Assembly: GCA_051362555.1 (NCBI GenBank)
Contig: CM120648.1
Location: 16,054,587-16,118,586, forward strand
DNA: 64,000 nt
Direction of reading: 5' to 3'
Source of the DNA: Lingula anatina
Lineage: Eukaryota; Animalia; Brachiopoda
The translations under genes were made by a program, and so were the position numbers. The notes beneath the pieces are model-generated. The model did not search any database. It was not told the origin of the DNA and saw only the letters and a list, made by a program, of their open reading frames with translations. Shown in pieces: positions 23,106 to 64,000 of this stretch (its first letter is position 1; every line of letters starts with the position of its first letter).

Positions 23106-23144
<39 letters not shown>

Positions 23145-41925: not shown

Positions 41926-43102
41926 TGAGTATCTGAGGTTGAGGTTTGCGATCTAGGGAGTATTACCCACTTTGGCCAAACTTGTCATTTTAAAACTAAC
42001 GAACTATAATATAAACGCTGAACTTCAAGGTGTCTTAACATGAAAATATTTGGGACACATGAGGGACATTTTGGTTAAGTTGAGGCTCAGACACATTAGT
42101 ATTTTGTATCCGAGGTTGAGGAGTTCAAAGGCGTTGTGAACTATATTAGGATACCAGGTTGCCTTCATTTTCCCTGATGGAACTTGTTTATTTTTTACTA
42201 CTTTGCAGCTGATGATGCATTTGGGTATTTTTTATTATTTTTTGATACAACCATGCATCCAGTTTTATTGCCATTCATTTCCAGTCCCCTCTTCTCGGTT
42301 CAAAAACATGGTTCAAATATAAAAAAAATCCAAACACAATCTGACATATAAGTTTTATTACATTCTAAGCAAATGAATTTGATATATTCAAATAAAAGTA
42401 CATGCAGGCATATAAAGGCAATGTCCGAATTCCAGTGTCGTCATCGTGAGCTAAAACAATACCACCACCAACCCCCCCCCCCCCCCCAACAAAAAAAAAA
42501 AAAAAAAAAAAAAAACATTTATTTATAAAAAAGACAATCTTTTCATAAATTTTATTGTAGAAAAGCTTCATACCAGACACAAAGTGCGATCTAAGTGCGA
42601 GTCATTTTTTGGTATCTTTTTTAACATTATTCTCATTTTCTGTCATAAACACAGAAAGTAAGGCTACAACTGAAAGTAAGCAATAGCAGTCGTTAAGCTG
42701 ATTTTACTCAGCGAGATTCCCTACAGATTAATAACGATCTACGTACATTGTAGACCGATGACATCTATGGGACAGGCCCAAATATTGGTTGTAACAGAGT
42801 CTTTCCTCCATTAAATTTATATGGGGGTTACCGTGACGTAAGTGGATTGACTTCTGAGAAGAGTACTTATACAGGTTTCACGTTTACTTTAACGGATATC
42901 TAATTTTTCCTGTCGAAAGGCGGTCAAAGGTGAAGGATGAATCAAAGATAAATTTAGAAGACTGACTGAAATATATCTCTGGATCTGCCCTTAGCCGTGT
43001 ATCGTAAGGGGCTCTGGTGCATTGGGACTGGTTGACTTCCCAACATTTTATTATTTAAAAAAAATGTTTTAAATTGAACCGTCTTATTCCACCAACTTTC
43101 AG

Positions 43103-44528
43103 CTAGATTACGGTGTACTCAAACAGAGGGATATATTTCCCCCTTGATTCGTCATACTTGGCGCACAATTTCAACTTCCCGGGACAGTCTCCTGTATAAA
43201 CTGTTCCATCCCACGTGTCCCCGTCGCTAGGCAACGGTTGCCATTTCCGGTTCACCATAGCGGAGACCTGTAGCGCTCCAGGAACCTGAAGTTTGAAACT
43301 TATTAGGCTTCCGGCGTCAAGGACCCCCGTGAAAGGGTGATGGAGAACCCCTACATCCCAGCGCCCTAACGCGATGGGCAAGGGGCATTGTTCCATAGAC
43401 GGCACAGAGCAGCGAACAAGCACGCGGTAAACACACTCAAATTGGTCTTCCACTGCCGACTGCGAAACTGAGATTTGGGATACATTCAAGTCTAATTCCG
43501 CAGCGAAAACAGAAAGCATGTAAAATCCGTTTTTTATCATTCTTAATCTGAATCCCACGTGATCTGGGTCTTTTTCGTAGATCATGGCGAACTGAGTGTT
43601 CTCCAGAGCGGACGACACCGATTTCCCAAAATATACGAAAGTATGCGAAATTCGGCAGTTTCTTTTTGTAAGTATTCGAAAACAATAATCACTTTCTTTG
43701 TCATGTACAACGTATGGGTCAAAACGAGCTACAGGAGAAATGCCCAAGCCCTTGGCATGTGCAGTGGCACCCAAAATGTGTACATTTGGATAATGACGTC
43801 TGCTAGAAGATTTGTCGACGTCAGTACAGTTAATCTGAAACACGCATGCGCATTCCATGGTGGTCGAAGGGTCGTCTGCTACGAATATTTTGAAAAAGTA
43901 TATGCCTGGCTGTGGGACTTTGGCAGTGAAAAGAACCTCGTTGTCGATTCTTCGACTAAGAACGCTTCCTGTCCCCGATTCTCGACTAGCTGCAGACGGG
44001 GGGTGGTGTGGGTCAATTTTAGCAGCAAAGTCTGCCCGACTGGCATTCGGCACTCCTATTCTCACCTCAGCCCTGCCGGAGTGCGTCCATAGAATCGATA
44101 TGTACCGGGTTGCAAAGCGCAGGCCTTTGTTAAAAAATGGCGCCTTTACCACCGGGAGTCTAATAAATTCCTCCATGGAAATGGCAGGCTCCATTAGCTG
44201 CCACTTTTTGTCGTCCGGAAAATGTTCAAAAATATGATCTTCGGGGTCTGTGAGAAAATAAAACTCCTCACACCGATATTGAAGCTCTTCGTTGATGACA
44301 TTCCCCTGACCTTGACCTGGTGATGTGATCTGACCTTGACCTAGTTCGTCCTCAAAATGTTTCCCCCTGGTGAATCGTGCACCCCATTGGCAGTTGATGA
44401 AGTGCCAAGACCCGTCCACGCAGACCGCTGTCCAGGAATTTCTGAAGCGCCTGGACATTTTACGACCAGCCCTGTAGCCAGAACCCTTCGAGTACCCACG
44501 GATGATCTCACAGTGAATTCCAGCGTAA
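43103..44528 (-). CDS. Hil: hillarin-like terminal exon, copy 2 (open frame)
   Basis: The 451-aa ORF differs from copy 1 only at GNTW/GDTW in the provided translations. Confidence 0.88.
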
Positions 44529-46550
44529 CTAATATAAAAAATAAAAACAATAACAATGACTTTTAATTGACTTCCCGAAAAAAGGCAGCTTTAAGGAACA
44601 AAGACTAGATAAATGTCTAAAAAAATGTTTTTGAAATGACAAAAATAAATAATAAAAAGTTACATCACTTTAATTGAATCCCCGAAAATAAGCAGTCATA
44701 ATGAAGAAAGACTCGACTGATACATTCAGTTCACTGTTAGAATGAGGGAACAGGGTTTCCTTGAGAAAAGAAAAGAAGAAGAAAAGAAGTTCAAGAAAAA
44801 TAAGAAGAAGAGGTGGATACCACCAAAGATAAGATTGAGGGGTACTTGCTATGCCAACTCCCCCCCAACCCAGAATCCAGAATACAGTTTAGCCCACCCT
44901 CGACGTTGCAGGTGGTTTCCTCGAATAAAATATTCACTGAAAGTGGTATAGAGTTTCATGAGACAAGAGGCACTGAGGTTTACCTGCATAGTCGTTTAAA
45001 AAGAACATGATAACTTTCAATCCCCAGTTTGATCCCTCTAAGCAGTCCCAGGGGAGTGTCTGGGTCAAGGTCATCGCTGAACTCCATCTTGTTCAGGTTC
45101 TTTACGGTAATCCAACGGAATATGGCTCTGAAAGCATGTAACATTAACAACGTTAAACAAACGTGCACCTTGGTTTAGACAGCGCAAAAACAGATTAAAG
45201 AAATGTTAAAATCAATGATGTTGCATCTGCCCTAAGAATTTCACTAAGTATTATATGAGATAAAATAGGCAAATGTTCTTTAAAAAAATCAGTCATTTTT
45301 CTAATATGCAATTGCAATCATGCTCAGTGTGTGTTTGTTCAGGAAAATAATAAATAAATAAGATTAAAATTAAAATTAATTAAAATCAAAATAAATAAAA
45401 TCAAATAAAACAGATATCAGAATTCAATGCTGACCTTCAGTAATATTTATAATAAGAATGATTAGTACCTTGCTTTTTCTAATTCGTTACAGCAGTCCTT
45501 GGTTAGGTTCCTTACAAGGTCTGTAAATGTAGTCAAATCGTCGGATTTCGCAACCTTTAATAACAATAGTAAAAAAGTCTTAGTCATACCCCGCTTGAAG
45601 AAGGAAAACAACTTTTCCCCAAGGATATCAAGAAGCATGAATAATGTAAAAATGTAACAATATGATAAAAATCCTTCTCTCTACAATTAAGCCCATTGTA
45701 ATTATTTACTTATTTATTTATTTATTACAAGAGAATATACGAATGTACGCCTGGTAAGGAAAGTGAGTCAATCTCGTCGTAGAGTGGAACTGCTGTTTTA
45801 ATTTCGTGACTTTGTCAAAACAACAAAAAAGTCACAAAATTGGCCATAATTCCCAGGTGCAGACGTCTCACTCACTAACATTTGGTCTGGTGATGAATAC
45901 TGACAGATTTTTACTAAAATTGAAGCAATGGCTTGTAACGACGGTTATGAATTTCACTGGGGATATGTGCACAGAAGCCACATTTCCTGTTTGCGTCGCC
46001 AACGTCAAAATGTTTTCAACAAGATATGTCTGTCGAATTTCATAGTTATGAAACATTTCATTGTTTTTTTTTTTTCATATTCAAATATTGCTTTTTTTTT
46101 GTTCATTTTAATTTATTTCAAAAGTCGAGTTTGGCTGTACGGTTTGTCAGAGTTTAAAATTATGTCTTAACGGAACAAATCTTTTTAATTGGATTATGCC
46201 CCTATTTCACACAGACCACGAATCCCACGAATCGCCAGGAATCGACAAATTTCAGGATTCGTGAGGATTCGTGAGATTTTTTAATGAACTACAGCTGACG
46301 ACGTAACAAACGTAGCGTCTCCCTGGCAGAGCTTTCTGCTGCTGTACACATAATAAAGGTTCATCTTTTCTGGACCTTGGTAGGTAAACGGAGCAGGACA
46401 TTCTTGGTCTCACAGCACCCCTGTCCTGGATAGATAAACCCTGTCCCCTCCCAACTCCACTCGTCGCTCTCATTGGGTAGTCAGCTGGTGGACGGAGAAT
46501 CCGTAGCCTTGGTAGGTAGTCCAAACCAAACATTTTTATTTCAACCCTCC

Positions 46551-46587
<37 letters not shown>

Positions 46588-48483
46588 GCTTAGTCTCACA
46601 GTTCCCTACTGTCCTGGATAGAAAAAAAAAACTCTTCATCCTCCTCTCGTTGCTCTCGTAGGGTATTCAGCCGATGTACTGATAATTCTTAGCCTGGTTA
46701 TTAAGCCCAAAAAGAACATATTTTATCTCAACCTCCATCTGCCACCCTGTGTAGATTACACCTCACCCCAGCAACCCCCCCACCCACCCACCCCACCATA
46801 TACCCTCTGATATCACAACCCCACTAAAATACTGTACAGAATCACACTGTTGGGTTTTCAACAATTTTGTACCAGAATACTAGCGCACCCTGTGGTCAGA
46901 GAGTACCAGCCATACGGTTGGCTTGGCTTTGTGACAGGACTGGTAGTCCTAGGAATGGAAGTCCAGGTTCCCATATGATAAGTACAGGTTAGGGTTAGCC
47001 GGTGTGACAGGAATGGTAGTCCTAGGAATGGAAGTCAGGACTCTCATAAGGCTAGTACAGATTAGGGTTAGTCGGAGTATTGGGGTTAGTATGTGGGGCG
47101 AATGTCACCTGTTCAAAATTAAATGGGGAACTGTATATGGTTCACTAGCGGACAACTATTCCTGTCAAAGGCTGCTATACCCTCTCGTACAATGGTTTCA
47201 CTGACGTACGCCCCTTATAAAACTAGCTTCTTCTGTCCACTTCCAGAACATGATTCTTCAACACACCTTACTTAAAATAAGACTTTGTGGCAAATCTATG
47301 TTTTGATTGCTGAAGGTATATATTTTTCAAATGGACTCATTGTTATTTCTTCTAAAGCAACACAATAAGACACGTCTGGCTGCTTTCCTCCAGAAGGCAT
47401 GTGTTATAGACTTATACAAGCATGTTTTGTTCTTGCATCACACAGTGATCGACTTTCATCCTTTTTAAAGGTCAAACTTTATTATCTACCCTGGCAACGC
47501 ACGAAGCGTTAGATCAATAAATAGAATTCAAATAAAATTACTGATCAATAAAAATAAGAATATCAATAGATATTTAAATAATCAAGATAAAATAAATTTA
47601 TTTTAATCAGTCAACGTTGACACTTGTATACCGTTCTGTAAGTTTTATTTCGTCTTGGCATCTGCACAGGTTCATTCACTTATGTAGGCGTTTTGAGGTA
47701 GGAAGAGTCTAAAAGAAACATTTTTTTTGTTTTTTCTTTTAGTTACGGATACTGTTAGCCTTTGCCAAAGCTCCTCATTAACTGCCTCACATACATTCAT
47801 TTGGATAATAGATAAATCTTTAGTGTTCAGTGACTTAATTAATTAACATTTACACGTATGTTATTTTACGAGTGAGGTCATAATTGCGGCTTTGTGATAA
47901 AATATTGAAAGATTGGTTTCGCAAATTTCTCCTTTACCTGAGAACCTACGAACACCGCTTCAACGCCAATTTAATGACACCATTTAGTACTCCAAAATCC
48001 TGCCATAGATTCGTTTTAAAAGTCTTTGTTCAGATTTTATCGTTGATAAAGCAAAATAATGTCTTTGTTTAATTTTAAAAAATCTGTTTTTAGGGATGAA
48101 GTTACGCCCCACACCGATAGATTATATTTTGGGTTTTTTTTTTATTGTTTTAAATCAAAACAAAGATAAGTGCATTGTTGAATAATAAGATGCAGGAAAA
48201 AACTACATTTCGGCATCTGGATGATAAAAAAGGCTTAGAATACCCTGTGGTTAAGCGAATGGCGAAAATCCATATAATCCAAACGCATTCAAATAAATAA
48301 ATAAATAAATATGTAAATAAATAAATAAATAAAGCCATACAATACTGACCTCGATCGCTTGCATATCGAGGCGTTGGACGGCAGAATCCGACTTTTCAAA
48401 GAGGTCCATCTTTTTAACCTCTGGTGGAGCGACATCTGGCGTAAAGATCTGTTGAAATCATTCTCTGTGTCGATCGCTCTTTC
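43103..48483 (-). pseudogene. Hil: hillarin-like gene, copy 2 (last four exons only in the window)
   Basis: Exons 48483-48350 (134 nt, 1-nt deletion near 48441), 45554-45469, 45127-44984 and 44528-43103. The upstream intron runs into the transposase array at 49649. Confidence 0.85.
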
Positions 48484-48981
48484 CTGAAATGTTTCAACGT
48501 GTTATTGTGAGTTAAGAAACACAAGGCTGGCTCATTTATAAAGATCATATATGTGGTGGGGGGGGGGGGGGGGGTTGCTCAAAACCCCGAAACCAAAATG
48601 CCGCGCTATGGGATTAGCCTTGCGAATGTGGTTATTGTAAATTCTAATCAACACTGTTTCTAAGAAGCACTGCATAACAAGTAGGGAGAGTTTACCATTT
48701 ATGAGTCCCACAAGGTGGAAACATAGTGTCTATGAAGAAATACAAAACGAAACTTTGTGAACCAGTCAATTAATTATCCTGCTTACTTAACCGGCCTTGT
48801 GGAGATGCAAATAAATACATAAATAAATAAATAAATAAATGAAATAAATAAATGAAATAAATAAATGAAATAAAATAAAATAATAAACGAATAAAAATTA
48901 AACACATAAATACTACACTATTACCGAATACAGTCATAATGAATAAAATAAGAATTTCACGTTAGAAATAGCTAAAATAAG

Positions 48982-48984
<3 letters not shown>

Positions 48985-49047
<63 letters not shown>
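48985..49047. repeat. (TA)n microsatellite specific to duplication copy 2
   Basis: Copy 1 has only gactatatctat at ~23265-23276. Confidence 0.9.
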
Positions 49048-49048
<1 letters not shown>

Positions 49049-49761
49049 TTTAAACTTCATCAATTTGAGATAAATGGGCATAAACATCCTGTGAAAAAAT
49101 ACAAATACACATGCATATTATGTGCCCACGACTTGAATTTCACCACTGTCACAATTTCCTCCTCAGCTTCTATTGCAACAGCTGTATTCAGTTTGATAGC
49201 ACTAGCAGACTTACCTCTGGGATATTCAAACTATGGAGCCGGAAACTCTCCGAGGTGACTCAAACTGTTCGTAAAATCAAGCGAGATTTCGCTGTATCTA
49301 GAGTAGGTTTGGGGTATAGATAATGGCAGCTTTATAATACGTAAACGCTTTTAATACGTAGGGGACAGTTTATTATTTTTTTCTTTTCAATTGTCTTTCA
49401 AAAGTATATTTCATTAAATTTTCAAACATTTTATTAGTCAGGAAATCTAGACCGACCCCCCCCCCCCCCTTGTATAACTCAAAAAGGGGGTGAAGTCCCA
49501 AGAAGATGGTAGCTCTACGTTGAGTTGAGGGGGGGGGGGGGGGACAAGTTGGCACCCTATACGAACATGAAGTATCCCATGTAAACACCTTGAAATACAC
49601 GTTTATTTATTAAGTTGATTTTTGAGAGTCATTGATGAATAAATAATTAGACCCCAGCTCAGCCAAAAATCATACCAGCTCACAGAGTTAGTCCGAAGTC
49701 CATAAGTGAAAAATACTGTCATCTTAGAGGAGAAAAAAAATTAGAGTTGCCAGGAGATAGA

Positions 49762-51771
49762 ATGCCTGGAAGAAAAAAGGCCAGAAAATGGTATTTTAAG
49801 CCAGGCAATACCTATGGGTCTCAGTACTGGCAAGGTGTCAGTGAAAAAAAAGCAGACCAGAGGAAAGAAGAAAGTCACCCCTTTACCAGACTGAGTGCTA
49901 CTCAGTATGAAGACCTTGTGACAGTGAGGAGAGATGGCACTCTCAGCCTCCATGATGTTGATGGAAATCCTGCTCCAGTGAGGTTGCTGAGACCAGTAAA
50001 ACCAAAGGCCACAGTCCAGCAGCCTGAGTCTGATGGCAAGCCACCAGTCAGTGATGATGTCTACAAGCTACACCATCAGGGGAAGCTGCTGCAGTTTTTT
50101 AATGACTGCTTTCAAGAGCATGCAGAGACCAGTGCTGGTTGTAATGGCAGACTTGTCTTCGACCCAAACAAAGAGGAGAAGCGAGGACTGTGTTGGAAGG
50201 AGGAAATGAAGTGTGGGAAATGCAGCTATCACTCTAAAAAGACAAAACTGTACACAGAGGTGACAAGAGAAGGACCAGGGTGCAAGGCAGCAGTACCTAA
50301 TGTAGCCATACAAGTTGGACTGTCCCAGACAATGATATCAAATGTTGCATGCCGGCGAATTTTGATGTCAGCTCACATCCCTGTACCAGCAACAAGTGGG
50401 ATGCAGAAACATACAAACAGTGTGCATGACAAGATAGTGGAAGCCAACAGAGGTGACATGGCCAGAAGGCGGGCTCAGCTGCATGAGAACAACCAAGTAA
50501 TGGGCCTCCCCAGAGACGCACCCATCAGAGTAGAGGGAGATGGACGTTATAATAACCCCCTGTATTCAGGTGCAGGGAAAACTCCCTTCCAGGCAGGCAC
50601 ACAGGCAGTGTATACAGTAGTTGAAAATCAAACTAAGAGCAAACAGGTGATTGCTGTGGCAACAAAAAATAAACTCTGTACTACAGCACAAAGACTGAGA
50701 AACAAGGGGCAGCGTGTGACATGTCCAGATCACCATGGCCACTGCTCTGCTTCAGCACCTCCTAACTCCAGCATTGGCGATGAAGCTGACCTAGCCCAGG
50801 CATGTGTGTTGGAAATGCAGCAGGACAACGAGCCAACACGTGTGAAGTACTGCATTCTGGATGGTGATTCACGTGCACTGAAGGGTTTCCAACCTACCTC
50901 AGAGACATCAACAAGTGATACCCCTCCGCTTCTACTAAAAGACACCCGTCACCTCAGTCTTGGACAGAAACGTGCACTGGCCAAAGTATCCTGGAGTTCT
51001 GGGATGTTTCCTAGACATCTGAAAATAGAGAAAGAAAAACTGATAAACAGATTCAATGAGGATGTTAAGCGTCAGTGTGCTATGACATTGTCACTGTGTT
51101 ATGATGCATGTGCTGGAGATGTGAACAAGATGATAAAAAAACTGACCTATGCCACTGATGCCATGATTGACTGTTACAATGGAAACCATGACTTATGCAA
51201 AAGAGGCAAGTCCTTCACATGTCAGGGCACAAAAAGACACCATTGGAACAAGCCCATGCTACCAGAAGGCTACAGGCTACATATGACTGATGAGGATAAA
51301 GATAAATTAAGACAATGTATTGGTTACAAATTGGACAGAAATGCAGTGCTCTCTCAGCACTTTAATAGTAACAGTCAAAAAGCAGAAGCAGTTAACCGCA
51401 CCTATACATCAACAAACCCAAAATGTGTCACCATGACAAGGAATTTCAGTGGCAGGATACACAGTGCTGTCCACAAGGTGAACAATGGACCAGGTCAGTC
51501 TACAGTGCAGCTACTGGAACATGTTGGAGCCAGCCTTCCACACAATTCCCGTGTTCGATGCCAGCTGAAAAGTGAAGATGCACAAGTGAAAAAGAGAAAA
51601 GATTCTAAAAAGAATATTAAAAGCAAGCAAAACAGAATAAAAACTGTTCTAAGAAACTATCAAATGTATGACTCTAGACCAGAAAAAGTTGTGTACAAAA
51701 AAGGCATGCATGACAAGCTGCCACAGAAATCCATTAGATGCCCTCCAGATCATAATTATAATAAAAAATAA
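49762..51771 (+). CDS. Mutator-like/Kolobok-related DDE transposase, unit 1 (669 aa from first ATG)
   Basis: RGL..C..C N-terminal motif, IRVEGDGRY (D260), VIAVATKNKLC..H.C, YCILDGDS (D367), DTRH (C/D-x-x-H), CYNGNHDLC, NSQKAEAVN (E542) and a basic C-terminus. Family assigned by motif recall, not by search. Confidence 0.8.
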   Translation: MPGRKKARKWYFKPGNTYGSQYWQGVSEKKADQRKEESHPFTRLSATQYEDLVTVRRDGTLSLHDVDGNPAPVRLLRPVKPKATVQQPESDGKPPVSDDVYKLHHQGKLLQFFNDCFQEHAETSAGCNGRLVFDPNKEEKRGLCWKEEMKCGKCSYHSKKTKLYTEVTREGPGCKAAVPNVAIQVGLSQTMISNVACRRILMSAHIPVPATSGMQKHTNSVHDKIVEANRGDMARRRAQLHENNQVMGLPRDAPIRVEGDGRYNNPLYSGAGKTPFQAGTQAVYTVVENQTKSKQVIAVATKNKLCTTAQRLRNKGQRVTCPDHHGHCSASAPPNSSIGDEADLAQACVLEMQQDNEPTRVKYCILDGDSRALKGFQPTSETSTSDTPPLLLKDTRHLSLGQKRALAKVSWSSGMFPRHLKIEKEKLINRFNEDVKRQCAMTLSLCYDACAGDVNKMIKKLTYATDAMIDCYNGNHDLCKRGKSFTCQGTKRHHWNKPMLPEGYRLHMTDEDKDKLRQCIGYKLDRNAVLSQHFNSNSQKAEAVNRTYTSTNPKCVTMTRNFSGRIHSAVHKVNNGPGQSTVQLLEHVGASLPHNSRVRCQLKSEDAQVKKRKDSKKNIKSKQNRIKTVLRNYQMYDSRPEKVVYKKGMHDKLPQKSIRCPPDHNYNKK

Positions 51772-51909
51772 TAATTTTATATAAACAACGTGGTTTGTTA
51801 TTTATTTATTAAATTGTGTGGGGTTAATTTTACTTAAAAGTTGGGGTTAACTTTCATGGTCACACTTAAAAGTTGGGGTTAACTTTCACAGCAGTCACAC
51901 TTAAAAGTT

Positions 51910-52122
51910 GGGGTTAAAGTTAGGGTTAGGGTTAGACTTAGGGTTAGGGTTAGGGTTAAAGTTAGGGTTAGGGTTAGAGGGTTAGGGTTAGGGTTAGGGT
52001 TAGACTTAGGGTTAGACTTAGGGTTAGGGTTAAAGTTAGGGTTAGGGTTAGACTTAGGGTTAAAGTTAGGGTTAGGGTTAGACTTAGGGTTAGGGTTAGG
52101 GTTAGTGTTAGGGTTAGGGTTT
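51910..52122 (+). repeat. degenerate telomeric tract (TTAGGG)n, unit 1
   Basis: GGGTTA hexamers interspersed with GACTTA, AAGTTA and GTGTTA variants. Confidence 0.95.
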
Positions 52123-53554
52123 GAGCTAGTTTTAAAAATGGGATAAATATTCTCCTACCGGCAGCTCTCTATCTTGTTAGTAAACAAACCACTGCACTGC
52201 TGACATTTAGGAGTTCCCTGCACCAGAGGTCCCACACTGCAACACAACTATCCTTGGTCCTGGAAAAAAAATATGCAGTATTTAACATCCTAGCCTGCTA
52301 GTTGGCACCAAAATTAACTCTAACAAAACAGGAAAAATGTCAGAAACAAAGAGGAAAAAATGAAATACAATTTTTATACACTGTATTTTAGCAGAACTAC
52401 ATTTTGTCTGTCCTATACATGTCGTATTCTGTCATTGTAATGACCTATTTTTAGGGTTACACTTGCCACACAAGGGTAGAAACCACCAAATAATTTCCCT
52501 TTGACAACTATACAAAGAAATGCCTGCAAAACTGCATGAATAAAAACATTTCCCATCCCCATGGACGGCAGACACACTGACATAACTCCCAATGGCACAA
52601 AATTATACTGTCACCAGACATTATTTCTTACCGGCATTACTTGAACATGTGACCCTTCTGTTTGTAAGCAAACCACTGCACTGCTCACATGTAGTAGCTC
52701 CCTCCGCCAGAGGTCTCACGACTGCACCACAACTATGCCTGGTCCTGAAAAAAAAACTGGCAGTAGTTTACACCCTGGCCTGCTAGTTGATCCCAAATTT
52801 AACCCTAGCAACACACAAGAAATACCAGGAAAAAAAATGAAAAAAAGCACTATTTTTATCTGAATGAACTATATTCGTCTATAACAGATGCTAATTGGCT
52901 GATTTATCAGTTTCCGCCCAGAACCAGAAACCAAAAATAACAAAATGACAATCCACCTACATATCCGGTTTAAAGTAGTGCTCAAACTTAATCAATCTTT
53001 ATGAAATATTCACCAAAAACTCAACAGCAATCCTGAAACATATCTGGAAAATTTGGTGCCTGTTGTAACAGTACTTATTGATATATTGCAGAATAAAAAC
53101 ATAGTCCAATTTACTGTGTTACACCTGTAAATTACAACAAAAATGAGAGTAATTATGGTATGTGAAGACCTGTGATTTTATGAAAAAGCTATATATCACT
53201 TCCAATTTTTTTACGTGAACAACTTGTTCCTTTAGCTAATCAAAAAAAATATTTCCACACACATTTACCTACTATATATGACCATTTTATGGAAAGTTTT
53301 AAGCTCCCCACCCCCCTAAATACATAGATAAATGGATAAAAATGCTGATGCATTATTCCAAACATCTAAGACCTAAAACCAACATTGCATACAAAAGACA
53401 AGGTGTCACTTCCTCACATGGAAAAAAAATTCCCAGGTTTACATCTGTGTAAACACTTTCCCTGGGGAGTTGAAATCAGTAGGGGCTCTGGGCCAGGTGG
53501 CTAGGGACAGGGAGCTAACACAAACATCCTGCTGCCTGGCCTCCTGCTGCCCTG

Positions 53555-53561
53555 TATAAAA
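53555..53561 (+). promoter_or_regulatory. candidate TATA box of the transposase gene (also ~57476, ~61396)
   Basis: TATAAAA ~120 bp upstream of the ATG, after a GC-rich stretch. Absent from unit 1. Confidence 0.55.
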
Positions 53562-53676
53562 GAGACCCCAGCTCAGCCAAAAATCATACCAGCTCACAGA
53601 GTTAGTCTGAAGTCCATGAGTGAAAAATACTGTCATCTTAGAGGAGAAAAAAAAATTAGAGTTGCCAGGAGACAGA

Positions 53677-55686
53677 ATGCCTGGAAGAAAAAAGGCCAGA
53701 AAATGGTATTTTAAGCCAGGCAATACCTATGGGTCTCAGTACTGGCAAGGTGTCAGTGAAAAAAAAGCAGACCAGAGGAAAGAAGAAAGTCACCCCTTTA
53801 CCAGACTGAGTGCTACTCAGTATGAAGACCTTGTGACAGTGAGGAGAGATGGCACTCTCAGCCTCCATGATGTTGATGGAAATCCTGCTCCAGTGAGGTT
53901 GCTGAGACCAGTAAAACCAAAGGCCACAGTCCAGCAGCCTGAGTCTGATGGCAAGCCACCAGTCAGTGATGATGTCTACAAGCTACACCATCAGGGGAAG
54001 CTGCTGCAGTTTTTTAATGACTGCTTTCAAGAGCATGCAGAGACCAGTGCTGGTTGTGATGGCAGACTTGTCTTCGACCCAAACAAAGAGGAGAAGCGAG
54101 GACTGTGTTGGAAGGAGGAAATGAAGTGTGAGAAATGCAGCTATCACCCTAAAAAGACAAAACTGTACACAGAGGTGACAAGAGAAGGACCAGGGTGCAA
54201 GGCAGCAGTACCTAATGTAGCCATACAAGTTGGACTGTCCCAGACAATGATATCAAATGTTGCATGCCGGCGAATTTTGATGTCAGCTCACATCCCTGTA
54301 CCAGCAACAAGTGGGATGCAGAAACATACAAACAGTGTGCATGACAAGATAGTGGAAGCCAACAGAGGTGACATGGCCAGAAGGCAGGCTCAGCTGCATG
54401 AGAACAACCAAGTAATGGGCCTCCCCAGAGACGCACCCATCAGAGTAGAGGGAGATGGACGTTATAATAACCCCCTGTATTCAGGTGCAGGGAAAACTCC
54501 CTTCCAGGCAGGCACACAGGCAGTGTATACAGTAGTTGAAAATCAAACTAAGAGCAAACAGGTGATTGCTGTGGCAACAAAAAATAAACTCTGTACTACA
54601 GCACAAAGACTGAGAAACAAGGGGCAGCATGTGACATGTCCAGATCACCATGGCCACTGCTCTGCTTCAGCACCTCCTAACTCCAGCATTGGCGATGAAG
54701 CTGACCTAGCCCAGGCATGTGTGTTGGAAATGCAGCAGGACAACGAGCCAACACGTGTGAAGTACTGCATTCTGGATGGTGATTCATGTGCACTGAAGGG
54801 TTTCCAACCTACCTCAGAGACATCAACAAGTGATACCCCTCCGCTTCTACTAAAAGACACCCGTCACCTCAGTCTTGGACAGAAACGTGCACTGGCCAAA
54901 GTATCCTGGAGTTCTGGGATGTTTCCTAGACATCTGAAAATAGAGAAAGAAAAACTGATTAACAGATTCAATGAGGATGTTAAGGGTCAGTGTGCTATGA
55001 CATTGTCACTGTGTTATGATGCATGTGCTGGAGATGTGAACAAGATGATAAAAAAACTGACCTATGCCACTGATGCCATGATTGACTGTTACAATGGAAA
55101 CCATGACTTATGCAAAAGAGGCAAGTCCTTCACATGTCAGGGCACAAAAAGACACCATTGGAACAAGCCCATGCTACCAGAAGGCTACAGGCTACATATG
55201 ACTGATGAGGATAAAGATAAATTAAGACAATGTATTGGTTACAAATTGGACAGAAATGCAGTGCTCTCTCAGCACTTTAATAGTAACAGTCAAAAAGCAG
55301 AAGCAGTTAACCGCACCTATACATCAACAAACCCAAAATGTGTCACCATGACAAGGAATTTCAGTGGCAGGATACACAGTGCTGTCCACAAGGTGAACAA
55401 TGGACCAGGTCAGTCTACAGTGCAGCTACTGGAACATGTTGGAGCCAGCCTTCCACACAATTCCCGTGTTCGATGCCAGCTGAAAAGTGAAGATGCACAA
55501 GTGAAAAAGAGAAAAGACTCTAAAAAGACTATTAAAAGCAAGCAAAACAGAATAAAAACTGTTCTAAGAAACTATCAAATGTATGACTCTAGACCAGAAA
55601 AAGTTGTGTACAAAAAAGGCATGCATGACAAGCTGCCACAGAAATCCATTAGATGCCCTCCAGATCATAATTATAATAAAAAATAA
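53677..55686 (+). CDS. DDE transposase, unit 2
   Basis: Intact 2010-nt ORF with 8 aa differences from unit 1. Confidence 0.8.
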   Translation: MPGRKKARKWYFKPGNTYGSQYWQGVSEKKADQRKEESHPFTRLSATQYEDLVTVRRDGTLSLHDVDGNPAPVRLLRPVKPKATVQQPESDGKPPVSDDVYKLHHQGKLLQFFNDCFQEHAETSAGCDGRLVFDPNKEEKRGLCWKEEMKCEKCSYHPKKTKLYTEVTREGPGCKAAVPNVAIQVGLSQTMISNVACRRILMSAHIPVPATSGMQKHTNSVHDKIVEANRGDMARRQAQLHENNQVMGLPRDAPIRVEGDGRYNNPLYSGAGKTPFQAGTQAVYTVVENQTKSKQVIAVATKNKLCTTAQRLRNKGQHVTCPDHHGHCSASAPPNSSIGDEADLAQACVLEMQQDNEPTRVKYCILDGDSCALKGFQPTSETSTSDTPPLLLKDTRHLSLGQKRALAKVSWSSGMFPRHLKIEKEKLINRFNEDVKGQCAMTLSLCYDACAGDVNKMIKKLTYATDAMIDCYNGNHDLCKRGKSFTCQGTKRHHWNKPMLPEGYRLHMTDEDKDKLRQCIGYKLDRNAVLSQHFNSNSQKAEAVNRTYTSTNPKCVTMTRNFSGRIHSAVHKVNNGPGQSTVQLLEHVGASLPHNSRVRCQLKSEDAQVKKRKDSKKTIKSKQNRIKTVLRNYQMYDSRPEKVVYKKGMHDKLPQKSIRCPPDHNYNKK

Positions 55687-55824
55687 TAATTTTATATAAA
55701 CAACGTGGTTTGTTATTTATTTATTAAATTGTGTGGGGTTAATTTTACTTAAAAGTTGGGGTTAACTTTCGCGGTCACACTTAAAAGTTGGGGTTAACTT
55801 TCACAGCAGTCACACTTAAAAGTT

Positions 55825-56043
55825 GGGGTTAAAGTTAGGGTTAGGGTTAGACATAGGGTTAGGGTTAGGGTTAAAGTTAGGGTTAGGGTTAGAGGGTTAG
55901 GGTTAGGGTAAGGGTTAGGGTTAGACTTGGGGTTAGACTTAGGGTTAGGGTTAAAGTTAGGGTTAGGGTTAGACTTAGGGTTAAAGTTAGGGTTAGGGTT
56001 AGACTTAGGGTTAGGGTTAGGGTTAGTGTTAGGGTTAGGGTTT
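55825..56043 (+). repeat. degenerate telomeric tract, unit 2
   Basis: Same pattern as unit 1 with a few private variants. Confidence 0.95.
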
Positions 56044-57597
56044 GAGCTAGTTTTAAAAATGGGATAAATATTCTCCTACCGGCAGCTCTCTATCTTGTTA
56101 GTAAACAAACCACTGCACTGCTGACATTTAGGAGTTCCCTGCACCAGAGGTCCCACACTGCAACACAACTATCCTTGGTCCTGGAAAAAAAATATGCAGT
56201 ATTTAACATCCTAGCCTGCTAGTTGGCACCAAAATTAACTCTAACAAAACAGGAAAAATGTCAGAAACAAAGAGGAAAAAATGAAATACAATTTTTATAC
56301 ACTGTATTTTAGCAGAACTACATTTTGTCTGTCCTACACATATCGTATTCTGTCATTGTAATGACCTATTTTTAGGGTTACACTTGCCACACAAGGGTAG
56401 AAACCACCAAATAATTTCCCTTTGACAACTATACAAAGAAATGCCTGCAAAACTGCATGAATAAAAACATTTCCCATCCCCATGGACGGCAGACACACTG
56501 ACATAACTCCCAATGGCACAAAAATATACTGTCACCAGACATTATTTCTTACCGGCATTACTTGAACATGTGACCCTTCTGTTTGTAAGCAAACCACTGC
56601 ACTGCTCACATGTAGTAGCTCCCTCCGCCAGAGGTCTCACGACTGCACCACAACTATGCCTGGTCCTGAAAAAAAAACTGGCAGAAGTTTACACCCTGGC
56701 CTGCTAGTTGATCCCAAATTTAACCCTAGCAACACACAAGAAATACCAGGAAAAAAAATGAAAAAAAGCACTATTTTTATCTGAATGAACTATATTCGTC
56801 TATAACAGATGCTAATTGGCTGATTTATCAGTTTCCGCCCAGAACCAGAAACCAAAAATAACAAAATGACAATCCACCTACATATCCGGTTTAAAGTAGT
56901 GCTCAAACTTAATCAATCTTTATGAAATATTCACCAAAAACTCAACAGCAATCCTGAAACATATCTGGAAAATTTGGTGCCTGTTGTAACAGTACTTATT
57001 GATATATTGCAGAATAAAAACATAGTCCAATTTACTGTGTTACACCTGTAAATTACAACAAAAATGAGAGTAATTATGGTATGTGAAGACCTGTGATTTT
57101 ATGAAAAAGCTATATATCACTTCCAATTTTTTTACGTGAACAACTTGTTCCTTTAGCTAATCAAAAAAAATATTTCCACACACATTTACCTACTATATAT
57201 GACCATTTTATGGAAAGTTTTAAGCTCCCCACCCCCCTAAATACATAGATAAATGGATAAAAATGCTGATGCATTATTCCAAACATCTAAGACCTAAAAC
57301 CAACATTGCATACAAAAGACAAGGTGTCACTTCCTCACATGGAAAAAAAATTCCCAGGTTTACATCTGTGTAAACACTTTCCCTGGGGAGTTGAAATCAG
57401 TAGGGGCTCTGGGCCAGGTGGCTAGGGACAGGGAGCTAACACAAACATCCTGCTGCCTGGCCTCCTGCTGCCCTGTATAAAAGAGACCCCAGCTCAGCCA
57501 AAAATCATACCAGCTCACAGAGTTAGTCTGAAGTCCATGAGTGAAAAATACTGTCATCTTAGAGGAGAAAAAAAAATTAGAGTTGCCAGGAGACAGA

Positions 57598-59607
57598 ATG
57601 CCTGGAAGAAAAAAGGCCAGAAAATGGTATTTTAAGCCAGGCAATACCTATGGGTCTCAGTACTGGCAAGGTGTCAGTGAAAAAAAAGCAGACCAGAGGA
57701 AAGAAGAAAGTCACCCCTTTACCAGACTGAGTGCTACTCAGTATGAAGACCTTGTGACAGTGAGGAGAGATGGCACTCTCAGCCTCCATGATGTTGATGG
57801 AAATCCTGCTCCAGTGAGGTTGCTGAGACCAGTAAAACCAAAGGCCACAGTCCAGCAGCCTGAGTCTGATGGCAAGCCACCAGTCAGTGATGATGTCTAC
57901 AAGCTACACCATCAGGGGAAGCTGCTGCAGTTTTTTAATGACTGCTTTCAAGAGCATGCAGAGACCAGTGCTGGTTGTGATGGCAGACTTGTCTTCGACC
58001 CAAACAAAGAGGAGAAGCGAGGACTGTGTTGGAAGGAGGAAATGAAGTGTGAGAAATGCAGCTATCACCCTAAAAAGACAAAACTGTACACAGAGGTGAC
58101 AAGAGAAGGACCAGGGTGCAAGGCAGCAGTACCTAATGTAGCCATACAAGTTGGACTGTCCCAGACAATGATATCAAATGTTGCATGCCGGCGAATTTTG
58201 ATGTCAGCTCACATCCCTGTACCAGCAACAAGTGGGATGCAGAAACATACAAACAGTGTGCATGACAAGATAGTGGAAGCCAACAGAGGTGACATGGCCA
58301 GAAGGCAGGCTCAGCTGCATGAGAACAACCAAGTAATGGGCCTCCCCAGAGACGCACCCATCAGAGTAGAGGGAGATGGACGTTATAATAACCCCCTGTA
58401 TTCAGGTGCAGGGAAAACTCCCTTCCAGGCAGGCACACAGGCAGTGTATACAGTAGTTGAAAATCAAACTAAGAGCAAACAGGTGATTGCTGTGGCAACA
58501 AAAAATAAACTCTGTACTACAGCACAAAGACTGAGAAACAAGGGGCAGCATGTGACATGTCCAGATCACCATGGCCACTGCTCTGCTTCAGCACCTCCTA
58601 ACTCCAGCATTGGCGATGAAGCTGACCTAGCCCAGGCATGTGTGTTGGAAATGCAGCAGGACAACGAGCCAACACGTGTGAAGTACTGCATTCTGGATGG
58701 TGATTCATGTGCACTGAAGGGTTTCCAACCTACCTCAGAGACATCAACAAGTGATACCCCTCCGCTTCTACTAAAAGACACCCGTCACCTCAGTCTTGGA
58801 CAGAAACGTGCACTGGCCAAAGTATCCTGGAGTTCTGGGATGTTTCCTAGACATCTGAAAATAGAGAAAGAAAAACTGATTAACAGATTCAATGAGGATG
58901 TTAAGGGTCAGTGTGCTATGACATTGTCACTGTGTTATGATGCATGTGCTGGAGATGTGAACAAGATGATAAAAAAACTGACCTATGCCACTGATGCCAT
59001 GATTGACTGTTACAATGGAAACCATGACTTATGCAAAAGAGGCAAGTCCTTCACATGTCAGGGCACAAAAAGACACCATTGGAACAAGCCCATGCTACCA
59101 GAAGGCTACAGGCTACATATGACTGATGAGGATAAAGATAAATTAAGACAATGTATTGGTTACAAATTGGACAGAAATGCAGTGCTCTCTCAGCAATTTA
59201 ATAGTAACAGTCAAAAAGCAGAAGCAGTTAACCGCACCTATACATCAACAAACCCAAAATGTGTCACCATGACAAGGAATTTCAGTGGCAGGATACACAG
59301 TGCTGTCCACAAGGTGAACAATGGACCAGGTCAGTCTACAGTGCAGCTACTGGAACATGTTGGAGCCAGCCTTCCACACAATTCCCGTGTTCGATGCCAG
59401 CTGAAAAGTGAAGATGCACAAGTGAAAAAGAGAAAAGACTCTAAAAAGACTATTAAAAGCAAGCAAAACAGAATAAAAACTGTTCTAAGAAACTATCAAA
59501 TGTATGACTCTAGACCAGAAAAAGTTGTGTACAAAAAAGGCATGCATGACAAGCTGCCACAGAAATCCATTAGATGCCCTCCAGATCATAATTATAATAA
59601 AAAATAA
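57598..59607 (+). CDS. DDE transposase, unit 3
   Basis: Intact; differs from unit 2 by SQHF to SQQF. Confidence 0.8.
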   Translation: MPGRKKARKWYFKPGNTYGSQYWQGVSEKKADQRKEESHPFTRLSATQYEDLVTVRRDGTLSLHDVDGNPAPVRLLRPVKPKATVQQPESDGKPPVSDDVYKLHHQGKLLQFFNDCFQEHAETSAGCDGRLVFDPNKEEKRGLCWKEEMKCEKCSYHPKKTKLYTEVTREGPGCKAAVPNVAIQVGLSQTMISNVACRRILMSAHIPVPATSGMQKHTNSVHDKIVEANRGDMARRQAQLHENNQVMGLPRDAPIRVEGDGRYNNPLYSGAGKTPFQAGTQAVYTVVENQTKSKQVIAVATKNKLCTTAQRLRNKGQHVTCPDHHGHCSASAPPNSSIGDEADLAQACVLEMQQDNEPTRVKYCILDGDSCALKGFQPTSETSTSDTPPLLLKDTRHLSLGQKRALAKVSWSSGMFPRHLKIEKEKLINRFNEDVKGQCAMTLSLCYDACAGDVNKMIKKLTYATDAMIDCYNGNHDLCKRGKSFTCQGTKRHHWNKPMLPEGYRLHMTDEDKDKLRQCIGYKLDRNAVLSQQFNSNSQKAEAVNRTYTSTNPKCVTMTRNFSGRIHSAVHKVNNGPGQSTVQLLEHVGASLPHNSRVRCQLKSEDAQVKKRKDSKKTIKSKQNRIKTVLRNYQMYDSRPEKVVYKKGMHDKLPQKSIRCPPDHNYNKK

Positions 59608-59745
59608 TAATTTTATATAAACAACGTGGTTTGTTATTTATTTATTAAATTGTGTGGGGTTAATTTTACTTAAAAGTTGGGGTTAACTTTCGCGGTCACA
59701 CTTAAAAGTTGGGGTTAACTTTCACAGCAGTCACACTTAAAAGTT

Positions 59746-59964
59746 GGGGTTAAAGTTAGGGTTAGGGTTAGACATAGGGTTAGGGTTAGGGTTAAAGTTA
59801 GGGTTAGGGTTAGAGGGTTAGGGTTAGGGTAAGGGTTAGGGTTAGACTTGGGGTTAGACTTAGGGTTAGGGTTAAAGTTAGGGTTAGGGTTAGACTTAGG
59901 GTTAAAGTTAGGGTTAGGGTTAGACTTAGGGTTAGGGTTAGGGTTAGTGTTAGGGTTAGGGTTT
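59746..59964 (+). repeat. degenerate telomeric tract, unit 3
   Basis: Same variant pattern as unit 2. Confidence 0.95.
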
Positions 59965-61517
59965 GAGCTAGTTTTAAAAATGGGATAAATATTCTCCTAC
60001 CGGCAGCTCTCTATCTTGTTAGTAAACAAACCACTGCACTGCTGACATTTAGGAGTTCCCTGCACCAGAGGTCCCACACTGCAACACAACTATCCTTGGT
60101 CCTGGAAAAAAATATGCAGTATTTAACATCCTAGCCTGCTAGTTGGCACCAAAATTAACTCTAACAAAACAGGAAAAATGTCAGAAACAAAGAGGAAAAA
60201 ATGAAATACAATTTTTATACACTGTATTTTAGCAGAACTACATTTTGTCTGTCCTACACATATCGTATTCTGTCATTGTAATGACCTATTTTTAGGGTTA
60301 CACTTGCCACACAAGGGTAGAAACCACCAAATAATTTCCCTTTGACAACTATACAAAGAAATGCCTGCAAAACTGCATGAATAAAAACATTTCCCATCCC
60401 CATGGACGGCAGACACACTGACATAACTCCCAATGGCACAAAAATATACTGTCACCAGACATTATTTCTTACCGGCATTACTTGAACATGTGACCCTTCT
60501 GTTTGTAAGCAAACCACTGCACTGCTCACATGTAGTAGCTCCCTCCGCCAGAGGTCTCACGACTGCACCACAACTATGCCTGGTCCTGAAAAAAAAACTG
60601 GCAGTAGTTTACACCCTGGCCTGCTAGTTGATCCCAAATTTAACCCTAGCAACACACAAGAAATACCAGGAAAAAAAATGAAAAAAAGCACTATTTTTAT
60701 CTGAATGAACTATATTCGTCTATAACAGATGCTAATTGGCTGATTTATCAGTTTCCGCCCAGAACCAGAAACCAAAAATAACAAAATGACAATCCACCTA
60801 CATATCCGGTTTAAAGTAGTGCTCAAACTTAATCAATCTTTATGAAATATTCACCAAAAACTCAACAGCAATCCTGAAACATATCTGGAAAATTTGGTGC
60901 CTGTTGTAACAGTACTTATTGATATATTGCAGAATAAAAACATAGTCCAATTTACTGTGTTACACCTGTAAATTACAACAAAAATGAGAGTAATTATGGT
61001 ATGTGAAGACCTGTGATTTTATGAAAAAGCTATATATCACTTCCAATTTTTTTACGTGAACAACTTGTTCCTTTAGCTAATCAAAAAAAATATTTCCACA
61101 CACATTTACCTACTATATATGACCATTTTATGGAAAGTTTTAAGCTCCCCACCCCCCTAAATACATAGATAAATGGATAAAAATGCTGATGCATTATTCC
61201 AAACATCTAAGACCTAAAACCAACATTGCATACAAAAGACAAGGTGTCACTTCCTCACATGGAAAAAAAATTCCCAGGTTTACATCTGTGTAAACACTTT
61301 CCCTGGGGAGTTGAAATCAGTAGGGGCTCTGGGCCAGGTGGCTAGGGACAGGGAGCTAACACAAACATCCTGCTGCCTGGCCTCCTGCTGCCCTGTATAA
61401 AAAAGACCCCAGCTCAGCCAAAAATCATACCAGCTCACAGAGTTAGTCTGAAGTCCATGAGTGAAAAATACTGTCATCTTAGAGGAGAAAAAAAAATTAG
61501 AGTTGCCAGGAGACAGA

Positions 61518-63527
61518 ATGCCTGGAAGAAAAAAGGCCAGAAAATGGTATTTTAAGCCAGGCAATACCTATGGGTCTCAGTACTGGCAAGGTGTCAGTGA
61601 AAAAAAAGCAGACCAGAGGAAAGAAGAAAGTCACCCCTTTACCAGACTGAGTGCTACTCAGTATGAAGACCTTGTGACAGTGAGGAGAGATGGCACTCTC
61701 AGCCTCCATGATGTTGATGGAAATCCTGCTCCAGTGAGGTTGCTGAGACCAGTAAAACCAAAGGCCACAGTCCAGCAGCCTGAGTCTGATGGCAAGCCAC
61801 CAGTCAGTGATGATGTCTACAAGCTACACCATCAGGGGAAGCTGCTGCAGTTTTTTAATGACTGCTTTCAAGAGCATGCAGAGACCAGTGCTGGTTGTGA
61901 TGGCAGACTTGTCTTCGACCCAAACAAAGAGGAGAAGCGAGGACTGTGTTGGAAGGAGGAAATGAAGTGTGAGAAATGCAGCTATCACCCTAAAAAGACA
62001 AAACTGTACACAGAGGTGACAAGAGAAGGACCAGGGTGCAAGGCAGCAGTACCTAATGTAGCCATACAAGTTGGACTGTCCCAGACAATGATATCAAATG
62101 TTGCATGCCGGCGAATTTTGATGTCAGCTCACATCCCTGTACCAGCAACAAGTGGGATGCAGAAACATACAAACAGTGTGCATGACAAGATAGTGGAAGC
62201 CAACAGAGGTGACATGGCCAGAAGGCAGGCTCAGCTGCATGAGAACAACCAAGTAATGGGCCTCCCCAGAGACGCACCCATCAGAGTAGAGGGAGATGGA
62301 CGTTATAATAACCCCCTGTATTCAGGTGCAGGGAAAACTCCCTTCCAGGCAGGCACACAGGCAGTGTATACAGTAGTTGAAAATCAAACTAAGAGCAAAC
62401 AGGTGATTGCTGTGGCAACAAAAAATAAACTCTGTACTACAGCACAAAGACTGAGAAACAAGGGGCAGCATGTGACATGTCCAGATCACCATGGCCACTG
62501 CTCTGCTTCAGCACCTCCTAACTCCAGCATTGGCGATGAAGCTGACCTAGCCCAGGCATGTGTGTTGGAAATGCAGCAGGACAACGAGCCAACACGTGTG
62601 AAGTACTGCATTCTGGATGGTGATTCATGTGCACTGAAGGGTTTCCAACCTACCTCAGAGACATCAACAAGTGATACCCCTCCGCTTCTACTAAAAGACA
62701 CCCGTCACCTCAGTCTTGGACAGAAACGTGCACTGGCCAAAGTATCCTGGAGTTCTGGGATGTTTCCTAGACATCTGAAAATAGAGAAAGAAAAACTGAT
62801 TAACAGATTCAATGAGGATGTTAAGGGTCAGTGTGCTATGACATTGTCACTGTGTTATGATGCATGTGCTGGAGATGTGAACAAGATGATAAAAAAACTG
62901 ACCTATGCCACTGATGCCATGATTGACTGTTACAATGGAAACCATGACTTATGCAAAAGAGGCAAGTCCTTCACATGTCAGGGCACAAAAAGACACCATT
63001 GGAACAAGCCCATGCTACCAGAAGGCTACAGGCTACATATGACTGATGAGGATAAAGATAAATTAAGACAATGTATTGGTTACAAATTGGACAGAAATGC
63101 AGTGCTCTCTCAGCAATTTAATAGTAACAGTCAAAAAGCAGAAGCAGTTAACCGCACCTATACATCAACAAACCCAAAATGTGTCACCATGACAAGGAAT
63201 TTCAGTGGCAGGATACACAGTGCTGTCCACAAGGTGAACAATGGACCAGGTCAGTCTACAGTGCAGCTACTGGAACATGTTGGAGCCAGCCTTCCACACA
63301 ATTCCCGTGTTCGATGCCAGCTGAAAAGTGAAGATGCACAAGTGAAAAAGAGAAAAGACTCTAAAAAGACTATTAAAAGCAAGCAAAACAGAATAAAAAC
63401 TGTTCTAAGAAACTATCAAATGTATGACTCTAGACCAGAAAAAGTTGTGTACAAAAAAGGCATGCATGACAAGCTGCCACAGAAATCCATTAGATGCCCT
63501 CCAGATCATAATTATAATAAAAAATAA
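61518..63527 (+). CDS. DDE transposase, unit 4
   Basis: Intact; protein identical to unit 3 in the provided translations. Confidence 0.8.
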   Translation: MPGRKKARKWYFKPGNTYGSQYWQGVSEKKADQRKEESHPFTRLSATQYEDLVTVRRDGTLSLHDVDGNPAPVRLLRPVKPKATVQQPESDGKPPVSDDVYKLHHQGKLLQFFNDCFQEHAETSAGCDGRLVFDPNKEEKRGLCWKEEMKCEKCSYHPKKTKLYTEVTREGPGCKAAVPNVAIQVGLSQTMISNVACRRILMSAHIPVPATSGMQKHTNSVHDKIVEANRGDMARRQAQLHENNQVMGLPRDAPIRVEGDGRYNNPLYSGAGKTPFQAGTQAVYTVVENQTKSKQVIAVATKNKLCTTAQRLRNKGQHVTCPDHHGHCSASAPPNSSIGDEADLAQACVLEMQQDNEPTRVKYCILDGDSCALKGFQPTSETSTSDTPPLLLKDTRHLSLGQKRALAKVSWSSGMFPRHLKIEKEKLINRFNEDVKGQCAMTLSLCYDACAGDVNKMIKKLTYATDAMIDCYNGNHDLCKRGKSFTCQGTKRHHWNKPMLPEGYRLHMTDEDKDKLRQCIGYKLDRNAVLSQQFNSNSQKAEAVNRTYTSTNPKCVTMTRNFSGRIHSAVHKVNNGPGQSTVQLLEHVGASLPHNSRVRCQLKSEDAQVKKRKDSKKTIKSKQNRIKTVLRNYQMYDSRPEKVVYKKGMHDKLPQKSIRCPPDHNYNKK

Positions 63528-63665
63528 TAATTTTATATAAACAACGTGGTTTGTTATTTATTTATTAAATTGTGTGGGGTTAATTTTACTTAAAAGTTGG
63601 GGTTAACTTTCGCGGTCACACTTAAAAGTTGGGGTTAACTTTCACAGCAGTCACACTTAAAAGTT

Positions 63666-63890
63666 GGGGTTAAAGTTAGGGTTAGGGTTAGACTTAGGGT
63701 TAGGGTTAGGGTTAAAGTTAGGGTTAGGGTTAGGGTTAGGGTTAAAGTTAGGGTTAGGGTTAGAGGGTTAGGGTTAGGGTTAGACTTAGGGTTAGGGTTA
63801 AAGTTAGGGTTAGGGTTAGACTTAGGGTTAAAGTTAGGGTTAGGGTTAGACTTAAGGTTAGGGTTAGGGTTAGTGTTAGGGTTAGGGTTT
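63666..63890 (+). repeat. degenerate telomeric tract, unit 4
   Basis: Rearranged hexamer order; lacks the variants private to units 2 and 3. Confidence 0.95.
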
Positions 63891-64000
63891 GAGCTAGTTT
63901 TAAAAATGGGATAAATATTCTCCTACCGGCAGCTCTCTATCTTGTTAGTAAACAAACCACTGCACTGCTGACATTTAGGAGTTCCCTGCACCAGAGGTCC

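Follow-up and report, generated by a model that had tools for sequence, protein, structure and literature searches.

The right-hand part of a 64,000-nucleotide stretch of the Lingula anatina genome (GCA_051362555.1, contig CM120648.1, positions 16,054,587 to 16,118,586; hereafter the window) is occupied by a head-to-tail array which is very probably a multimer of a cut-and-paste transposon with the form INT-(LTDR-INT)n, where INT is the internal sequence and LTDR a long terminal direct repeat. The transposon is likely a member of KolobokP that has lost its nuclease and carries a TTAGGG-like tract as a passenger, and the array adjoins an intron of a hillarin/KY-like gene.

The four units of the array are more than 99% alike, with repeat starts at 49649, 53563, 57484 and 61404 and periods of 3914, 3921 and 3920 bp, in agreement with the units of ~3.92 kb described in the original prediction, which was made from the letters of this DNA. 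Its description of an intact open reading frame (ORF) of 669 amino acids (aa) per unit, followed on the same strand by short repeats and a degenerate TTAGGG tract, applies to all four units. The TATA box it placed in every unit is present in the later units, but the first copy starts just past that box and lacks it, together with 643 bp of INT sequence and the left LTDR. Because the unit had been phased on this 5'-truncated copy, the ends of the element were missed. With a likely LTDR of 446 bp, the monomer is 4,367 bp. Unit 4 is cut off by the end of the window, and the right end of the array lies outside it. Between units 1 and 2 there are 21 differing sites, and between units 2 and 3 there are 3, so that the units are distinguishable and do not form an exact assembly loop. 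The features of the array are the following.

49649-52473, plus strand: INT 1, 5'-truncated; the left LTDR is missing, as are the initial 643 bp of INT
49762-51771, plus strand: transposase ORF copy 1, 669 aa, with S158 and R237 kept as in most relatives
51832-51917, 55747-55832, 59668-59753 and 63588-63673, plus strand: short repeats of 32-35 bp, 2.6 copies, merging into the tract
51907-52121, plus strand: tract of unit 1 (TTAGGG/TTAGAC/TTAAAG), inside INT at the position of the relatives' His-Me nuclease
52175-52360, 56096-56281 and 60017-60201, plus strand: partial LTDR duplicate, 80% identical to LTDR-internal 52659-52845
52474-52919, plus strand: LTDR 1, 446 bp, GG..CC, with a degenerate terminal inverted repeat (TIR); the left end has good support and the right end is likely
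52920-56394, plus strand: INT 2, complete, 3,475 bp, with a 757-bp leader (TATA box at 53555), the ORF and a 708-bp trailer
53677-55686, plus strand: transposase ORF copy 2, catalytic and zinc-finger residues located
55822-56042, plus strand: tract of unit 2, identical to that of unit 3
56395-56840, plus strand: LTDR 2, 446 bp, or 652 bp with the rival right end 57046
57598-59607, plus strand: transposase ORF copy 3
59743-59963, plus strand: tract of unit 3
60315-60760, plus strand: LTDR 3, 446 bp
61518-63527, plus strand: transposase ORF copy 4
63663-63889, plus strand: tract of unit 4, with small indels relative to units 2-3; INT 4 runs off the window

Judged from its residues, the product of these ORFs is an intact DDE transposase with the full catalytic set. 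A hidden Markov model search matched residues 108-487 to PF20700 (Pfam; E 4.5e-43), which bears out the earlier assignment to the DDE transposases with Kolobok among the candidates. PF20700 is present in all 35 homologues (28-59% identity, most on contigs of 2-4.8 kb), and 33-35 of them retain D260, D367, D369, D394xxH397 and E542. A CCHC finger (C306/C321/H324/C328) is placed after the first D (D260), and a second finger (C471/H476/C479/C487) lies between DxxH and E542. The residues of the first finger and C471/C479/C487 are kept in 27-35 of the 35 homologues, while position 476 is C or H in 33. For the predicted structure of the protein (pLDDT 82), the best match among solved structures is the ISCth4 transposase (PDB 6XGX), a weak match (E 9.3e-4) and the sole one below 0.001 among 375. 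The two proteins are alike in having an RNase H core with a helical insertion, but they share 9% identity with TM-scores of 0.29/0.44, and ISCth4, which is presumably IS256/Mutator kin, is a bacterial insertion sequence without an LTDR.

The LTDR ends were placed by comparison with 37 metagenome loci encoding related transposases. A matrix built from 12 LTDR starts of these loci finds one LTDR start per unit and ranks 56395 at the top of its unit (19.4 versus 3.2 for the next position), a score that none of 300 shuffles attained. Placing the right end at 56840 yields a segment of 446 bp with GG..CC termini and 13/20 TIR matches, and a right-end motif matches only this position in the unit (2 of 2000 shuffles). 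The original prediction had reported no TIR pair. That is correct at its own boundary of 49649, where a TIR search, like general inverted-repeat scans, returned nothing convincing, but the degenerate GG..CC pair does bound the 446-bp segment of its spacer. An inward-facing CCAAT box at 56815-56819 stands at position 22 from the LTDR right end and is a candidate promoter element for a minus-strand gene; such a box lies at positions 20-24 in 6 of 12 relatives. The relatives with a CCAAT box near the LTDR right end are L001, L010, L014, L022, L029 and L033.

KolobokP is a group of DNA transposons described by Kojima and Bao 2022 (PMC9587614), and what is said of the group here refers to the portions of that paper and its supplement drawn upon for this comparison. 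A DDE signature with C/DxxH and two fingers is attributed there to KolobokP and three sister lineages. The LTDRs of KolobokP are about 450 or 660 bp long (5'-RR..YY-3') and carry TIRs of 11-18 bp according to the text and 1-25 according to Table S1, and the outer ends are flanked by target site duplications (TSDs) of 3-5 bp. Multimers of the form (LTDR-INT)n are common, and solo LTDRs and copies without the left LTDR occur. A His-Me nuclease is encoded on the complementary strand in most families, though not in KolobokP-1_LG and KolobokP-1_SaGl. The window element resembles this group in its DDE transposase with C/DxxH, a CCHC finger past the initial D and another finger ahead of E; in its GG..CC LTDR of ~450 bp and monomer of ~4.4 kb, both within published ranges; and in its (LTDR-INT)n multimers, left-LTDR-less copies and convergent minus-strand transcription past the transposase. 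Judged by eye in the alignment of PMC9587614, its motif order is like that of KolobokP-4_GiAe, KolobokP-7_GiAe and KolobokP-1_BaPl. Membership of the element in the KolobokP lineage is thus likely on sequence grounds, and the tandem arrangement that the original prediction regarded as unexpected for a DDE element is common among KolobokP families (PMC9587614).

The related loci have the same general build. A minus-strand His-Me ORF is found in 26 of the 37 (finger nuclease profile built from 7 loci, threshold E<1e-9). LTDRs of 447-469 bp with GG..CC termini and 14-18/18 TIR matches occur in 12 of the 26 related loci scanned, and 10 of the 37 have overlapping or repeated ends, as would be the case for tandem units or circles. 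In a tree made by a quick method from 64 rows, which did not include nine short proteins (L026, L027, L029, L031 and L033-L037), the window protein forms a group with P0001-P0003 (support 100), and the next group (support 94) consists of L003, which has the nuclease, and L005-L007, in which none was found. His-Me/LTDR-bearing loci surround the window protein in this tree, which is without a named KolobokP reference or another Kolobok lineage. The 52 pattern matches in viral contigs included no relative.

A His-Me nuclease ORF was not found in the window array in a six-frame search (best profile E 3.1) and was also not found in the spliced antisense module described below. Since the window array lacks a match to this hallmark of most KolobokP families, the element would be a nuclease-less variant and not a typical KolobokP. 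The nuclease slot is occupied by the tract and the partial LTDR duplicate. Nuclease loss seems recurrent, because L007 and L022 are without a match despite 2-3 kb of downstream sequence; other loci may be too short. The tree relatives without a His-Me match at the threshold are L005, L006, L007, L017, L022, L028 and L032.

Several points weigh against this assignment or against the LTDR ends. The right-end motif was composed after the candidate was known and fits 4 of the 12 training ends, right-end matrices did not single out 56840, and 57046 is a rival right end that gives 652 bp and also ends in CC; both 446 and 652 bp fit published KolobokP length classes. A TIR of 13/20 was reached by 111 of 200 shuffles, with unbroken pairing in the terminal 3 bases only, and the TIR by itself was accordingly dropped as proof of the LTDR. 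A search with nhmmer and a whole-LTDR profile reached only E about 1, and blastn of the LTDR and spacer against the 37 loci gave nothing at E 0.01. The LTDR flanks, ACAA and AGAA, are unlike the TATA/TTAA-like flanks of most relatives. Unlike KolobokP, the window element combines a weak TIR and atypical flanks with no LTDR excess over INT in contigs; such an excess was not clear there, and no solo LTDRs were seen in the window. No TSD or outer terminus is visible in the window, where the left end is truncated and beyond which the right end lies. The comparison with named KolobokP proteins was visual and not computed, three short motifs of the window element were not found in the sequence file of PMC9587614, and the tree is only a quick one in which the sister-clade link has a support of 94.

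The left flank of the array belongs to a host gene. The segment 16987-23883 matches 42692-49645, a tandem duplication that holds the left flank and a hillarin/KY-like gene on the minus strand. When 18 homologues were mapped, both gene copies showed four exon groups, and copy A alone had one more exon upstream.

43109-48483, minus strand: hillarin/KY-like copy B, with 3' exons at 43109-44548, 44986-45141, 45468-45539 and about 48344-48483
22777-24717, minus strand: intron of hillarin/KY-like copy A with the empty site 23886|23887; upstream exon at about 24718-25232

The array begins 1.17 kb upstream of the copy B exons, in the next intron. This placement follows from the paralogue of the junction, 23886|23887, which falls in the copy A intron 22777-24717. 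The junction itself, 49648|49649, is blunt with no microhomology seen, and is crossed weakly, by one contig of sequencing run X5 that extends only 20 bases. The duplication as a whole spans about 8281-49648 with a period of about 26-28 kb and copies that are 89-98% alike. Both hillarin/KY-like duplicates have a 451-aa terminal-exon ORF (17404-18759 and 43103-44458), and both gene copies contain a 73-bp two-copy repeat with TTAGGGTTAG motifs (21237-21382 and 46930-47075) that is unrelated to the array.

At least half of the unit's words were found in nine sequencing runs of three studies. In the DNA runs X3 and X5, single contigs run through the TATA junction and each of the two LTDR ends, with a depth close to that of the ORF (266-365 versus 363 in X3; 1076-1244 versus 1186 in X5), which fits a family that lies mostly in arrays. 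Contigs of the flank or junction have depths of 27 and 74, giving a rough ratio of 13-16-fold that is not a copy number. Unbroken contigs were considered as proof that free ends are absent, but rare branches get cut during assembly and the junction contig of X5 enters the element by 20 bases only, so this argument was weakened. A diverged sister family, about 89% alike and from the same species, is seen in X3, X5, X7, X8 and X9; it matches 51225-51537 and the ORF end and has other sequence past the stop codon. One X9 contig, a weak observation, leads from the ORF end into LTDR sequence with almost nothing between them and no tract.

RNA from the element is mostly antisense, spliced and non-coding. 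Its exons in unit 2 are the following.

56553-56665, minus strand: antisense exon A, inside the LTDR
56080-56180, minus strand: antisense exon B, within the partial duplicate of the LTDR
55317-55479, minus strand: antisense exon C, overlapping the transposase ORF
54813-54933, minus strand: antisense exon D, overlapping the transposase ORF and spliced to exon A of the LTDR on its left

Four minus-strand GT-AG joints are supported in RNA run X13 by 17, 1, 14 and 14 reads, with the first mate always on the plus strand. The same joints have 2, 3, 2 and 0 reads in X16, and contigs of X8 hold all four; X19, with 7 reads in total and no joint, is not evidence. Three of the joints were not found in the DNA runs X3, X5 and X9. 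Every reading frame of the 498-nt exon module contains stops. In X13 the minus-strand depth peaks at 80 at 55751-55881, beside the tract, so that the RNA likely runs through the C-rich strand of the tract, while sense depth is at most about 6. Minus-strand coverage in X13 ceases near 53260, and a large number of molecules terminate near 55733; 53262-53392 and 55655-55733 are candidate 3' ends of antisense isoforms. The joining of exon D to exon A was rejected as proof of tandem order because exon A sits in the LTDR, and a monomer or back-splicing would give the same joint. Some RNA reads join exons A and D to sequence outside the window, where expressed copies may therefore lie; these loose ends were sought as hillarin exons in the window and not found there.

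The tract lies 3' of each ORF and is 212-224 bp long, with a GTTAGG period, 35.5-37.5 copies and 77-79% matches. Perfect TTAGGG accounts for 21-24 of its 35-37 hexamers, and the longest perfect run is 3, or 4 in unit 4. TTAGAC and TTAAAG recur in a fixed pattern that is identical in units 2 and 3, and CTAACCCTAA is absent from the whole window. Each tract is located inside INT, between the stop codon and the LTDR, and ends 352 bp before the LTDR left end. It has the appearance of a microsatellite that was duplicated together with the unit. Its location inside each copy, where relatives have the nuclease gene, makes it a likely passenger rather than a telomere target. None of the 37 related loci has such a tract (none exceeds 2 TTAGGG per 150 bp), and KolobokP likewise differs from the window element in having no ~220-bp TTAGGG-like tract with a partial LTDR duplicate in the nuclease slot, as far as the consulted parts of PMC9587614 go. 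A sea star element in the supplement of that paper, KolobokP-2_PaMi, does carry an internal degenerate TTAGGG tract on the transposase strand, although it is shorter (about 100 bp by eye) and lies upstream of the transposase, whereas that of the window element lies downstream. No further long TTAGGG-like tract was found among 12 matches to four motifs in the same supplement.

Based on these observations, the array may have formed in several steps. The monomer would have been inserted by its own transposase, and the array could have grown when LTDRs crossed over unequally or when LTDR-INT circles integrated again, both of which have been put forward for KolobokP multimers (PMC9587614). Recombination or circles were also suggested in the original prediction, and such growth is likely. 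Later unequal exchange may have spread one local variant, since units 2-4 share 10 ORF changes relative to unit 1, a pattern that points to such spread. The left LTDR would have been lost by deletion, along with 643 bp of INT. The tract may have been born by slippage of a TTAAAGTTAGGG-like motif and then copied passively. The antisense RNA likely arises from the inward CCAAT promoter of the LTDR, possibly the old nuclease promoter, or from host-gene read-through. Because its TIRs are worn, the element is now likely more macrosatellite than mobile element.

Alternatively, the same element could carry a functional tract, a fragile site that is G-quadruplex-prone or bound by telomere proteins and that would stand in for the lost nuclease in setting off breaks and unequal crossover, and so keep the multimer growing. 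This alternative is unlikely, although the tract sits exactly in the nuclease slot, contains 6 G-quadruplex-type motifs with loops of at most 12 (1-2 with loops of at most 7) and holds most of the inter-unit indels, and the family looks array-dominated, with a depth ratio to flank contigs of roughly 13-16. Slippage alone would give microsatellite indels, the nuclease-less loci L005-L007 are without a tract, and a related family could supply the nuclease in trans. In a broader form that is similarly doubtful, a KolobokP sub-lineage would have swapped its homing-type nuclease for the tract as a built-in fragile site, with the macrosatellite spreading by break-induced unequal crossover, producing antisense (CCCUAA)n-containing RNA and seeding interstitial telomere-like arrays in genes.

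One reading raised in the original prediction is a telomere-associated or telomere-targeting DDE element; the tracts would then be target remnants, or the array would cap a chromosome end. Telomeric retroelements and TBE/TATE-type elements likewise combine a tandem order with telomeric repeats close to the gene of a mobile element. The G-rich strand does point right, as it would at a chromosome end, the right end of the array lies beyond the window, and the upstream hillarin exons of copy B were not seen within it. The repeat of the window element, in contrast to those systems, is internal, degenerate and fixed in pattern, and the element has no reverse transcriptase and no terminal telomeric repeats. 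Telomerase addition is expected to give perfect repeats of variable length. Against targeting stand the position of the tract inside INT, not between element ends, and its absence from the related loci. A telomeric location fits poorly with a left flank that is an ordinary host intron whose paralogue continues into upstream exons, and short TTAGGGTTAG motifs are also interstitial at four places in the left 49.6 kb of the window. No telomere-targeting Kolobok or Mutator-like element was found in the literature searched, a search with most subscription journals and Repbase outside its scope. A telomeric role is very unlikely.

Domestication, in which the transposase gene would be kept as a macrosatellite for a host function, was also raised in the original prediction and is highly improbable. 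Four ORFs are open with the full catalytic set and samples from three or more studies contain the unit, but open ORFs are expected for copies less than 1% apart. The four ORFs differ at 11 codons, of which 9 are non-synonymous and 2 synonymous; the sites are few, and these sequences give no sign of purifying selection. The changes common to units 2-4 include S158P and R237Q, at conserved sites where the unit-1 residue is kept by 24 of 35 homologues. The LTDR build is kept, and the RNA is mostly antisense. That the array is an assembly artefact, which the original prediction had named as a reason to discard its reading, is scarcely credible. Units 2-4 are nearly identical, but every unit is marked by differences that are its own or are shared with others. 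Contigs assembled from independent DNA runs extend across the TATA junction and the ends of the LTDR with the depth of the unit, and related loci also assemble with overlapping ends.

Elsewhere in the window, a retrotransposon with Gypsy-order genes and long terminal repeats lies on the minus strand at 1142-6086, with its pol split in pieces: a gag-protease-reverse transcriptase ORF of 925 aa, an RNase H-integrase ORF of 493 aa and a 168-aa tail ORF. A 146-bp satellite is found at 26845-27988 (7.9 copies, 81% matches). Plus-strand ORFs of 165 aa at 15392-15889 and 41252-41743 have a YADD/YDDD-type motif and by eye are fragments of a non-LTR reverse transcriptase.

In the KolobokP model, the element's own nuclease drives multimer formation (PMC9587614), a model called unconfirmed by a 2026 review in the part drawn on here (PMC13565253). 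The array described here adds one young nuclease-less KolobokP family and indicates that such a family can form an array of at least four units, with transposases intact, beside a host intron. Nuclease-less multimers are a natural control for the nuclease-driven model. If the tract were to drive crossover, it would be a new propagation trick, for which the present data hold no support. The array also illustrates one way for TTAGGG-like tracts to multiply away from chromosome ends.

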